44,333 bases of DNA from a virus (lineage: Duplodnaviria; Heunggongvirae; Uroviricota; Caudoviricetes): positions 1 through 44,333 of the IMG/VR virus record IMGVR_UViG_2909246061_000002. The stretch is one strand, 5' to 3'. The notes under the pieces are model-generated. The model saw nothing but the letters and a program-made list of their open reading frames with translations. It did no database searches and was not told the DNA's origin. The translations under genes and the position numbers were made by a program. Positions 35,343 to 37,702 of the stretch are shown here, one piece after another; position 1 is the first letter of the stretch; every line of letters begins with the position of its first letter.

Positions 35343-36413
35343 ATGTCACAGAACTGGATGAGACATTTCGAGCTGCAGCTTGTGGACGGGAACGGTCAGG
35401 GAATTGAGCTAAGTGATTTCAAAGTCACCTTTACGATCGACTGGTTCAACATCAGCAGCGCGTCCCGGGTAGGGACTATCAAAATTTATAACCTCTCGGC
35501 AGATACTGTGAACCGAATTACCGGGCAGGAGTTTTCGAAAGTGCGGCTGATTGCCGGTTACGACGGTATCGCGCCGGAGGTGGCGGCAAGCGACGTCGGG
35601 ACCGTGCGCGAAGTCGACGCGGCAGATGTGGGCCAGAGTGATGGCCGCAACTACGGGCTGATTTTCAGCGGAGAAATTCGCTACTCGGTCACAGGAAAAG
35701 ACAGCCCTATTGATTCCTATGTCCTGATTCAGGCAGCAGATACGGATCTGGCATTTGCCACCAGTATAACCTCGCAGACGCTGGCGGCCGGTTACACGGT
35801 CGCAGATGTGAACCGTGCGCTGATGAAAGACTTTGAGGCCAAAGGCGCGACCGAAGGACTGACGCCTGAAATGCCTGCTACCGTATTCCCTCGAGGGCGG
35901 GTGCTGTTCGGCATGACACGGCATCTTATGGATAACGTGGCCGGACAATGTGGCGCAACATGGCAATTTGTGGACGGTCAGCGCCAGATGGTGGCGAATA
36001 ACGAGTATGTTCACGACGCGATTGTGCTCAACAGCGCCACCGGGCTTATTGGCATGCCGCAGCAGACTATCGGCAACGGTGTAAACGTCCGTGCGCTGAT
36101 TAATCCGAACATCCGGGTTAACGGGCTTATTCAGCTGGATCAGGCTTCCGTGTACCGCACCGCGCTGTCGAACAATGATATCGCGATGGCTGGTGGGCAG
36201 ATCACCGACCAGAACACGGACGGTAATATCACGCTCAGCGGCACCACAGCACAACCTGCCAGCATCGCAACGGATGGCGTTTATATTGTGCGCGGGATTA
36301 TGTACACTGGTGACACAAGGGGCCAGGCGTGGTACATGGACATGATGTGCGAAGCGCGTGGCGCGGCGGATCTCCGTTCGTCGTCGTCTTTACAGCGGGA
36401 AGGACAAGAATGA
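35343..36413 (+). CDS. baseplate hub-like protein
   Basis: 356 aa; operon position. Confidence 0.45.
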   Translation: MSQNWMRHFELQLVDGNGQGIELSDFKVTFTIDWFNISSASRVGTIKIYNLSADTVNRITGQEFSKVRLIAGYDGIAPEVAASDVGTVREVDAADVGQSDGRNYGLIFSGEIRYSVTGKDSPIDSYVLIQAADTDLAFATSITSQTLAAGYTVADVNRALMKDFEAKGATEGLTPEMPATVFPRGRVLFGMTRHLMDNVAGQCGATWQFVDGQRQMVANNEYVHDAIVLNSATGLIGMPQQTIGNGVNVRALINPNIRVNGLIQLDQASVYRTALSNNDIAMAGGQITDQNTDGNITLSGTTAQPASIATDGVYIVRGIMYTGDTRGQAWYMDMMCEARGAADLRSSSSLQREGQE

Positions 36414-36766
36414 AAAAGTTGATTGTTATCGGACTCTGTTTCCTGCCCGGGTTAGCTTTTGCTGCAAATCCCGGCGGCATCACATTGCAATGTGGTGGTT
36501 ACAAATTGGAGTTGGTTCCTGACTCATTGTTCAGGATTAATGGTGAGACTGTTACCTCCCAGAAAATTAAAACTCTCGGTAATGGAAACGGTATGAAGGC
36601 AGACATGGGGCTTATGCCTGCCAAAGACGGTAACAACTACGGCTTTGAATACATTCGTCGCCCTGGTACCGAAACGCGATTCCTGAATGTGCAACTGCTG
36701 CAGAACAGCATGGATGCGCCGAAAATCATCGGATCTTTCCCGTGTAAAAAAGTGGCTGGGCGATGA
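36411..36766 (+). CDS. small secreted protein with signal peptide (accessory gene)
   Basis: ATGA overlap with the upstream stop; N-terminal MKKLIVIGLCFLPGLAFA signal peptide; two Cys in the mature part; not a recognisable tail protein. Confidence 0.55.
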
Positions 36767-36931
36767 TTTTTGACGTCCATAATATTATGGATGAACTGTT
36801 GCCAATTGCGCTAATTTTAACAAATTAATACTGGTTAACGCATTTTTTGAACCATCTGTACACAGTAGTTGTCTACACTTTACCTTAAAGGTAAACTCTG
36901 CGCTCCACTGATGTTCACTATGGGAGGGGAT

Positions 36932-37171
36932 ATGAGGAAAATCGTTAATCGTTACTTAGCCGCTGCCGGTAGTGTTATGGACATTATGCCGACTACAGAT
37001 TACTGGCAATATGCTGCTTCTGGATCTGATTGTCGGGCAATAAGAAGTGATGTTAAAGTCATTGCAAGTGACATGAACAGAGTTATCAGGTATGAGTTCA
37101 AAACCCCGCAAGCAGGCGGCCGTTCTCAAAAAGCATCAGGAAAACAAAGCGTCGCAAAAAGCCGTTCCTGA
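36932..37171 (+). CDS. hypothetical small protein, 80 aa, overlapping the next gene
   Basis: ATG at 36932 with GGGAGGGG RBS downstream of a promoter-like AT-rich spacer; 3' 80 nt overlap the next gene in another frame. Confidence 0.4.
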   Translation: MRKIVNRYLAAAGSVMDIMPTTDYWQYAASGSDCRAIRSDVKVIASDMNRVIRYEFKTPQAGGRSQKASGKQSVAKSRS

Positions 37172-37664
37172 TTCGGATGGTATCGACGAAGATATTGATT
37201 CCTCGGAATATGATGAGTCTCAGGAAGTAGTGGAAAAGCTGTCTGCAGTTGCCAACCTTGATCCTGAGCTAAAATCGAAGTTAACACCTGAACTTCTTGA
37301 GAGAGTTTCTAAGAACCCGAAGGTTATTGCCATGTTTCAGCAGGAGTCTTTTCAGGGACCACTCCCACCTCCTGCTATGCTCTTACAATATAATCAAATA
37401 TTACCCGGCGGCGCTGAGAGAATTTTCAGGCTAACCGAAAAAGAGCAAGAGCATAGGCATAAGACGCAAAGTGATGCATTACTTGGTGCGGTTTCACGCG
37501 ACAAACGTGGGCAATGGATGGGATTTTGCATTGCAATGGTAGTGCTTATAATGGCTGCGTTTTTTGCTAATCGCGGTAACACTTGGTTCGCAGGTACTCT
37601 TGCTACTTTAGATCTCGTAGGATTAACTACAGTGTTTGTTTATGGTAGGAAGAAACCTAAATAA
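37092..37664 (+). CDS. DUF2335-like membrane protein
   Basis: 190 aa; charged N-terminal half, motif FQGPLPPPAMLLQYNQILPGGAERIFRLTEKEQEHRH, two C-terminal TM helices. Confidence 0.6.
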   Translation: MSSKPRKQAAVLKKHQENKASQKAVPDSDGIDEDIDSSEYDESQEVVEKLSAVANLDPELKSKLTPELLERVSKNPKVIAMFQQESFQGPLPPPAMLLQYNQILPGGAERIFRLTEKEQEHRHKTQSDALLGAVSRDKRGQWMGFCIAMVVLIMAAFFANRGNTWFAGTLATLDLVGLTTVFVYGRKKPK

Positions 37665-37679
37665 TCCATACATCCTTTC

Positions 37680-37702
37680 AAACCCGCTTCGGCGGGTTTT
37701 TT
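37680..37702 (+). terminator. Rho-independent terminator closing the tail-region moron
   Basis: AAACCCGC-TTCG-GCGGGTTT followed by TTTT, 16 nt after the stop. Confidence 0.65.

Follow-up and report, generated by a model that had tools for sequence, protein, structure and literature searches.

Additions of promoter, gene and terminator to phage tail operons (morons) are a textbook class of element. The founding moron, gp15 of phage HK97, is an inner-membrane superinfection-exclusion protein that is encoded in the tail operon and expressed from the repressed prophage (PMC3594210). Here we analyse the interval between the baseplate hub and baseplate spike genes of a temperate phage genome, IMG/VR virus record IMGVR_UViG_2909246061_000002, whose 44,333 nucleotides (nt) we call the window. 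An initial annotation had described this interval as a single three-gene moron (genes A, B and C). Our analysis points instead to two adjacent accessory units, gene A on the one hand and a cassette of leader, B and C on the other, which appear to occupy a cargo bay between the hub and spike genes. That the locus as a whole combines a lineage gene A with a mobile B-C cassette encoding a phage-directed membrane device is, on balance, the explanation towards which we lean.

The B-C cassette resembles gp15 in being an extra gene unit in a late tail operon with atypical base composition, a terminator and an inner-membrane product, and in one siphovirus prophage (L067) B-C is flanked immediately by the chaperone gene (Phage_TAC_13/Phage_tail_T) on one side and the tape-measure gene on the other, which is the place of gp15. 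It differs in comprising two genes rather than one, in the cytoplasmic domain of about 140 amino acids (aa) that protein C carries besides its two transmembrane (TM) helices, and in a leader with an operator of repressor type, while gp15 has been described as expressed in the repressed state of its prophage; no sequence relationship between the two is known.

SieA of phage P22 is a protein of the inner membrane which prevents DNA injection, with three predicted TM segments and the cytoplasmic motif FxRYPxEAxxFNK (PMC10883804). SieA and C are both accessory inner-membrane proteins of prophages, but SieA acts alone while C always occurs with B. Membership of C in the SieA family was rejected, as C has two TM helices, both C-terminal, and a direct reading of its sequence finds FxRYPxEAxxFNK absent. 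In epsilon15-like podoviruses, B-C sits in a small island by the tailspike gene together with antirepressor-type genes, comparable to the P22 gene order sieA-mnt-ant.

Lambda RexA (279 aa) and RexB (four TM helices), an abortive-infection pair encoded beside cI, likewise form a two-gene module of a soluble and a membrane protein, and in Proteus B-C lies immediately 3' of cI on the same strand; there is, however, no homology, and in Proteus a terminator stands between cI and B-C. One B-C-carrying Escherichia coli prophage also has rexA with an adjacent ExbB-annotated gene in the rexB position. Lastly, the P2 and P4 defence hotspots are cargo hotspots of prophages. The hub-spike slot shares with them a fixed position between conserved phage genes and many alternative, mostly uncharacterised cargos (toxin-like and membrane proteins), but it lies inside the baseplate gene block, has a conserved terminator on its right, and its sampled cargo genes gave no PADLOC match above noise.

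The cargo slot between hub and spike genes

The interval and its flanks are composed as follows (positions refer to the window):

35343-36413, plus strand: baseplate hub gene, left backbone flank (phrog_196 'baseplate hub', 7e-89; weak match to Pfam E217_GP41)
36410-36766, plus strand: gene A, 118 aa, protein with a Sec signal peptide and a predicted small all-beta barrel, outside the exchangeable cassette
36755-37689, plus strand: exchangeable cargo segment, at whose borders homology to relatives with other cargo breaks and resumes
36932-37171, plus strand: gene B, 79 aa, basic (pI 10.2), no TM segment (phrog_26284, 2e-12), unannotated in RefSeq
37092-37664, plus strand: gene C, 190 aa, DUF2335, two TM helices (Pfam PF10097, 1.8e-18; phrog_3996 'membrane protein; moron')
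37680-37705, plus strand: intrinsic terminator AAACCCGC-TTCG-GCGGGTTT plus T-run, an 8-bp GC-rich hairpin at the right slot border
37722-38474, plus strand: baseplate spike gene, right backbone flank (Pfam spike N-terminal domain, 1.9e-44; Apex motif)

GC content falls to 0.42-0.46 over positions 36400-37800 as against 0.50-0.57 in the flanking tail genes, which bears out the AT-rich stretch seen initially. The closest sequenced relatives of the tail module are Escherichia phages vB_EcoM-689R2/606R2, Yersinia phage YP3 and Salmonella phage SEN34 (Brunovirus), and the hub gene is conserved in 689R2, YP3 and SEN34. In pairwise blastn comparisons with these three phages, homology runs through the hub gene and nearly all of gene A, ends at 36751-36754, and restarts at 37690 (689R2, SEN34) or 37722 (YP3).

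We screened 5426 complete E. coli genomes, 351 (~6%) of which carry this hub-spike module. B-C is present in 16 of these 351 genomes and absent from the other 335 (95%). The spacer, B-C and the terminator are 98-100% identical in VTB97448v, FDAARGOS_144 and KSC64, whereas the hub and spike genes are only 93-96% identical; a near-identical cassette on diverged backbones with different immunity regions indicates, at the level of sequence, recent horizontal spread as a block. The KSC64 prophage has lost the region from head morphogenesis to baseplate plug and is hence defective; its B-C is intact at 99.9% identity. B-C is thus very probably a mobile accessory cassette, separate from A, and the leader, B and C would recombine in and out of the slot as one.

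Other prophages hold other cargo at this position: a 190-aa protein with a YafO-family toxin, a 79-aa DUF4282 membrane protein, a pair of 243-aa and 142-aa proteins with a faint HEPN-like signal, or single genes of 170, 266 and 138 aa. In E. coli IAI1 (L061, 1728-2258) the slot encodes a 176-aa hydrophobic, apparently membrane-spanning open reading frame (ORF) and a 59-aa ORF, and RefSeq annotates nothing across the 774-nt gap.

The right border is constant whatever the cargo, reading AACCCGCC-N4-GGCGGGTTTTTTGCTTTCTGGAGCC and then the spike ATG, and 689R2, SEN34 and four differently loaded E. coli prophages each have a near-identical terminator 20-30 nt 5' of the spike start codon. Since the terminator is common to all cargo variants, it belongs to the phage backbone and not to any one cargo. 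The clean terminator of the initial annotation is therefore present at 37680-37705 but is a fixed slot border rather than the cargo's own signal; recombination might use it as an anchor when cargo is exchanged. Most B-C cassettes elsewhere end in similar terminators; CCCGCC...GGCGGGTTTTTGCTTTC terminators close B-C cassettes in unrelated phages (e.g. Yersinia, L017).

Gene A has a different history. It starts at 36410, not at 36411 as first given, and its ATGA overlap with the hub stop codon (36411-36413) and its N-terminus, MKKLIVIGLCFLPGLAFA/AN, which reads as a Sec signal peptide, agree with the initial description of a signal-peptide protein coupled to the hub gene stop. Behind the hub gene, A-like genes are present in 689R2, YP3 and SEN34 as well as in many prophages of Klebsiella, Salmonella, Raoultella and E. 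coli. They comprise 387 protein clusters, all of ~110-120 aa and all with a signal peptide, and two cysteines are invariant across a 31-sequence alignment. Conserved in this place across SEN34-like prophages, A is a fixture of the phage lineage. Its translation appears coupled to that of the hub gene, so that it would be produced alongside the late tail proteins.

AlphaFold models A as a 7-strand beta-barrel (pLDDT ~81-91 per 10-residue block past the signal peptide), and a fold search with this model returned generic small beta-barrels only. A periplasmic lysozyme inhibitor of the PliC/MliC type was considered for A and found unsupported, with neither family membership nor a specific fold match. 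The product would be exported via its Sec signal peptide to become a small periplasmic beta-barrel with the two invariant cysteines. In the 5' half of gene A (36410-36560, encoding the signal peptide and first strands), identity drops to 63-71% between prophages that share 93-96% identity in their hub and spike genes, and in strain KSC64 the gene is swapped for one encoding an unrelated secreted protein of 154 aa. Such divergence and replacement may reflect diversifying selection on a periplasmic protein, and they take place independently of B-C.

Morons have been recognised as extra DNA relative to close relatives, with atypical GC content, an own promoter and terminator, and expression from the repressed prophage (PMC3594210). 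B-C is present in some phages and not in close relatives, the base composition of the interval is unlike that of its neighbours, and a terminator is present, though common to all cargo variants. Gene A, conserved in relatives without B-C, is not absent from close relatives. A single three-gene insert is therefore not what we find: A is kept where B-C is missing and varies separately, and the moron assignment holds for B-C (AT-rich, horizontally exchanged, in a variable slot) but neither for A nor for the terminator.

The location inside the tail operon raises the question whether these genes are tail-assembly or virion components of this tail type, the more so since A, coupled as it is to the hub gene, has been kept throughout the lineage. 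We find this scarcely credible, as B-C is absent from 95% of the prophages with the same tail module and occurs in siphoviruses, podoviruses and non-phage remnants, and as the signal peptide of A is cleavable and would remove A from the cytoplasm, where tails assemble. The comparisons support B-C as an AT-rich, horizontally exchanged and apparently non-virion unit in a variable tail-operon slot.

Genes B and C as a pair

C scores 66.6 bits against Pfam DUF2335 (PF10097; cut-off 25 bits), the match spanning aa 92-141 and the full profile (1-50), and hydropathy places TM segments at about aa 143-160 and 165-184 (nt 37518-37571 and 37584-37643) with positive charges flanking them. The 190-aa DUF2335-like protein with two TM segments reported initially is thereby confirmed. 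C is laid out as an acidic, variable N-terminus, the DUF2335 core (nt 37365-37514) and a C-terminal TM hairpin; the AF2 model is all-helical, with a long helix at 107-160 and a second one at 164-187. The predicted topology is N-in/C-in, with a periplasmic loop of ~5 residues and a large cytoplasmic domain.

Gene B is preceded by a Shine-Dalgarno sequence, GGGAGGGG, at 36922-36929, so that the small ORF with a strong ribosome-binding site had been recognised correctly, except that its length is 79 and not 80 aa. B and C are read in different frames and share 80 nt, a feature absent from the initial annotation, and a selection test found both frames relaxed in the overlap. C has no usable Shine-Dalgarno sequence (AGG 1 nt 5' of the ATG), which together with the overlap suggests that its translation is probably coupled to that of B.

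The pairing extends far beyond the window. In all enterobacterial loci examined, the DUF2335 gene has a B-like ORF (64-108 aa) immediately 5' of it or overlapping it; these comprise loci of Citrobacter, Proteus, Providencia, Pluralibacter, Yersinia, Rahnella, Dickeya, Pantoea, Photorhabdus, Scandinavium and Kalamiella as well as Klebsiella phages RAH1 and BUCT711 and Escherichia phage EC.W1-9. The same arrangement is seen in a Pseudomonas lundensis record, and a B-like ORF accompanies DUF2335 in Pseudomonas phage MD8 (3e-10) as well as in Lacticaseibacillus phage P2.4 (1e-6). Xenorhabdus shows a fusion, the DUF2335 protein of 24 of 25 species carrying the N-terminal B motif R-Y-L-x-A-x-G-S-x-x-D-x-x-P-x-x-D-Y. 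A HMMER scan for B over 1.8 billion representatives returned 12 proteins at E<=0.001, of which 11 have 64-76 aa and one, marginal, has 1048 aa. These data make it highly likely that B and C work together, and the two appear to form an obligatory pair in which B, although unannotated, is a conserved gene.

The 24 Xenorhabdus loci form a remnant consisting of a divergent S24-repressor/cro pair and the fused B-DUF2335 gene, often with a NADAR gene. Fused-gene proteins are 65-80% identical, which suggests long vertical retention (domestication), and one remnant with the fused gene has no phage genes around it.

All contexts of B-C are accessory positions of temperate phages, with at least six kinds of slot. 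Besides the Proteus position past the cI terminator described above, the pair lies divergent from gtrA beside gtr genes at a prophage end (Citrobacter), upstream of a DUF1133-holin late region (Pluralibacter), adjoining Bro-N genes, in the tailspike island of epsilon15-like podoviruses on the strand opposite to the structural genes on either side, beside the integrase gene (MD8) and past the lysin gene (lactococcal proPhi6). In four siphovirus tail operons it occupies the interval between the tube or chaperone gene and the tape-measure gene, once together with a colicin-DNase/immunity pair.

Some of these contexts bear on the idea that A and/or B-C alter envelope physiology, stress tolerance or virulence, a lysogenic conversion unrelated to phages. 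A is secreted, C is a membrane protein, the Citrobacter cassette adjoins O-antigen-modifying gtr genes, and C falls into the PHROG category 'moron, auxiliary metabolic gene and host takeover'. Yet C exposes only ~5 residues beyond the cytoplasmic membrane, the pair occurs in Gram-positive phages too, which makes an outer-envelope role unlikely, and there is no similarity to any virulence factor; we consider such a conversion very improbable. Occurrence in Gram-positive phages rather places the action of the pair at the cytoplasmic membrane.

The leader and its operator-like palindrome

Upstream of gene B, and elsewhere in the prophage where its presumed regulators are encoded, the following features are relevant:

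36776-36791, no strand: perfect 16-bp palindrome TCCATAATATTATGGA in the distal spacer, probably not functional
36841-36931, plus strand: conserved leader, with a candidate -35 box TTGTCT (36869-36874), a candidate -10 box TAAACT (36892-36897) and the Shine-Dalgarno sequence of B
36879-36895, no strand: 17-bp palindrome TTTACCTT-A-AAGGTAAA, core TTACC-N5-GGTAA, operator-like, overlapping the candidate -10 box
9002-9706, minus strand: prophage CI repressor (LexA/S24 family), with operators at 7552-7568, 9725-9741 and 9774-9790
16910-17428, plus strand: Q-family antiterminator, from the RefSeq annotation of the identical E308 prophage

The non-coding spacer measures 165 nt (36767-36931) and has ~35% GC over the 140 nt scored (36782-36921). 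A sigma-70 consensus scan of the spacer found no site of at least 9/12. The best candidate, TTGTCT-17-TAAACT, reaches 8/12, which is equalled by about half of the shuffles, and consensus scoring over 15 cassette leaders did no better than shuffles. The AT-richness of the promoter-like spacer is thus real, while its promoter does not rise above chance. A 10/12 sigma-70-like site (TTTGCA-16-TATAAT, 37525-37552, plus strand) lies in the 3' part of C and is probably due to chance. An Rfam search of both strands of the interval yielded sub-threshold noise only. In some other phages, B-C is divergent from its upstream neighbour or antisense to flanking structural genes, so that there it must be transcribed as a unit of its own.

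Conservation singles out the proximal part of the spacer. The 91-nt leader is ~95% identical to that of a divergent cassette (L066), in which the DNA of C is ~80% identical and the distal spacer is deleted; the 16-bp palindrome at 36776-36791 was rejected as a functional site, being deleted there. The palindrome within the leader, TTTACC-N5-GGTAAA, fits the pattern TTTAYC-N5-GRTAAA of the prophage's own OL (7552-7568) and OR (9774-9790), which read TTTATC-N5-GATAAA and TTTATC-N5-GGTAAA. The window has four perfect matches to this pattern, whereas fewer than 0.4 sites would be expected even if one mismatch were permitted. An additional operator-like site, TTTATCGATATGGTAAA, lies at 14644 within a PAPS-reductase gene.

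The core TTACC-N5-GGTAA recurs 5' of B-like genes in five other cassette lineages (L019, L021, L054, L063 and L064) and upstream of neighbouring antirepressor-type (Bro-N) genes in other phages. Escherichia phage EC.W1-9 (L070) carries 12 exact copies, all intergenic, some of which lie in the cI-cro region and the tailspike island and others 5' of the genes for terminase and integrase. Such a distribution looks stoperator-like, as if for one repressor, and argues that TTACC-N5-GGTAA is a phage-repressor operator of a widespread specificity class. The CI of the window and the EC.W1-9 repressor share the same N-terminal DNA-binding domain family (36% identity), which makes binding of the leader palindrome by the resident CI plausible. 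That the operator is always matched to the resident repressor was rejected, since the same cassette occurs in prophages whose immunity regions, lambda-type and other, are without the motif in the stretches sampled; it would rather travel with the cassette and not be tuned to each host phage.

The palindrome is also open to another reading, in which B-C is a toxin-antitoxin or addiction-type pair, with C as a membrane-damaging toxin and B as its coupled antidote and possibly the palindrome's autorepressor. The order with the small gene first, the gene overlap, the palindrome at the promoter, the different palindromes of different cassette lineages, the basic nature of B (pI 10.2) and the YafO-family toxin pair in the same slot of other prophages all fit this scheme. 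Neither B nor C, however, matches a toxin-antitoxin family in Pfam, NCBIfam or PADLOC, and the covalent fusion of the B motif to C in Xenorhabdus is hard to square with a labile antidote. Moreover, TTACC-N5-GGTAA is found genome-wide in EC.W1-9 including cI-cro, and thus as a phage-repressor site rather than a B-specific one, and very different B proteins stand behind the same motif. We therefore rate a toxin-antitoxin pair as improbable and return to control of the cassette by a phage repressor.

Independent of the leader, the fused B-DUF2335 gene lies immediately 3' of cro, on the cro strand and beside a divergent S24-family repressor gene, in 24 of the 25 Xenorhabdus loci. The leader operator and this position behind cro together argue for repressor control, and we put the chances that the cassette promoter is repressor-gated at about even. 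Transcription of the cassette would then start in the conserved leader, gated by the CI/Cro-type operator TTTACC-N5-GGTAAA, and cassette transcripts would stop at the backbone terminator, whereas Q-antiterminated late transcription would pass on into the spike gene; we infer such late read-through at 37680 from lambda biology. A CI-type operator over the candidate -10 box predicts that the cassette is off in this repressed prophage. The cassette may thus be repressor-gated and not lysogen-expressed, which makes questionable the lysogen expression assumed when the interval was first called a moron. Repression by CI would favour a role soon after induction or infection.

Such control is also what would be expected if B-C served the lytic programme of its own phage without benefit to the host. 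It would be switched on when the repressor is lost and act at the membrane, be it to time lysis, to block host division, to anchor replication or, as T4 Imm/Sp do, to exclude competitors during lytic growth only. In addition to the CI-type operator in the conserved leader, the fused Xenorhabdus gene 3' of cro stands beside a repressor of the RecA-cleavable type (S24), and the same operator lies 5' of Bro-N antirepressor-type genes, which are expected to be silent in lysogens. On the other hand, B-C is dispensable, being absent from 335 of the 351 related E. coli prophages, the phage already has holin, endolysin, Rz and kil genes, the slots are typical of host-benefiting cargo (gtrABC and colicin-immunity genes adjoin), and B-C is kept both in the defective KSC64 prophage and in the Xenorhabdus remnant without phage genes. 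Taken together, we judge a role in the lytic programme unlikely.

The window itself is 100% identical to an E. coli E308 prophage at tRNA-Arg (argW), beside intS and yfdC. It holds a complete lambda-style temperate phage with a contractile tail module, whose further genes include torI, cIII, kil, a LexA-family CI, cro, cII, replication genes, a nin region, the Q antiterminator, holin/endolysin/Rz genes, terminase and head genes; by gene content it would be classed as a lambda-regulated, SEN34/Brunovirus-like myovirus prophage. Directly downstream of cI, where lambda carries rexAB, lies a ClpP-like SDH-family serine protease gene (7831-8835, minus strand), which on its position and family is a candidate prophage-expressed accessory or defence gene. 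The nin region (13841-15237) encodes an N6-adenine methyltransferase and a PAPS-reductase-family protein, and the early-left region (6170-6793) an Nmad5-family nucleotide-modification protein.

A possible membrane device directed at other phages

What B-C does is suggested by its company and its distribution. We tentatively favour phage exclusion or abortive infection at the cytoplasmic membrane, with B as the cytoplasmic partner, although we hold this as a possibility and not as the probable case. It is preferred because the pair is dispensable, mobile between slots, found in Gram-positive phages and repeatedly placed at the gp15 position, and because of the genes near which it is found, namely toxin pairs, bacteriocin-immunity genes, antirepressors and gtr genes. 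At the cytoplasmic face of the inner membrane, the pair would exclude other phages or abort their infection; a block to genome entry and membrane-directed abortive infection are the two ways in which it could do so.

Several observations weigh against this proposal. Firstly, the positional argument is guilt by association. Secondly, none of A, B and C has a match in PADLOC-DB 2.0 at E<=1 or in NCBIfam, a PDB sequence search with A, B and C had no match for any of them, and C is without a PDB fold match below E = 1, so that the sequences and models at hand bear no likeness to characterised exclusion, abortive-infection or defence proteins. Across Pfam, NCBIfam and PADLOC, DUF2335 for C was the only match of the three proteins, and the initial remark that this gene set resembles nothing nameable thereby stands. 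Thirdly, a literature search on DUF2335, PF10097, COG5346 and IPR019284 found no functional paper in the library searched. Two type VI secretion system papers list a 'DUF2335 phospholipase' toxin domain; they were discarded, as this is, in view of the Tle1 family, almost certainly a slip for DUF2235, and text searches for DUF2335 are contaminated accordingly.

The remaining objections concern regulation. The cassette promoter lacks statistical support, its best match of 8/12 being not above shuffles. Repression of the cassette by CI would leave a quiescent lysogen unprotected and so weakens a classic superinfection-exclusion reading. Furthermore, where the same cassette and palindrome occur in prophages of lambda-type or other immunity, the sampled stretches of the immunity region are without the motif; the operator would therefore not be generally matched to the resident repressor, and regulation of the cassette may differ by host prophage.

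In its widest form, the proposal would make B and DUF2335 an ancient and hitherto unrecognised two-component membrane system of temperate phages, ranging from Enterobacterales to Lactobacillales, that excludes or aborts competitors at the cytoplasmic membrane and is wired to CI/Cro-type operators, with the hub-spike interval as a terminator-insulated bay for conflict genes. We regard this wider form as doubtful. If it were true, the CI/Cro wiring would mean that the pair fires on derepression or reads the repressor status of resident or incoming phages.

While the element class is familiar, the partner gene B, the natural fusion, the definition of the slot and the operator are new here. Gene A changes status from cassette member to a lineage-fixed, hypervariable secreted protein worth separate study. 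The slot itself, in which at least eight different cargos occur, is a place to search for new genes of phage conflict. DUF2335 is a widespread family of phage and prophage membrane proteins, and the findings on B-C make it testable by providing three handles, namely an obligate small partner gene that annotation pipelines have missed, a natural fusion of the two in Xenorhabdus and a candidate operator.

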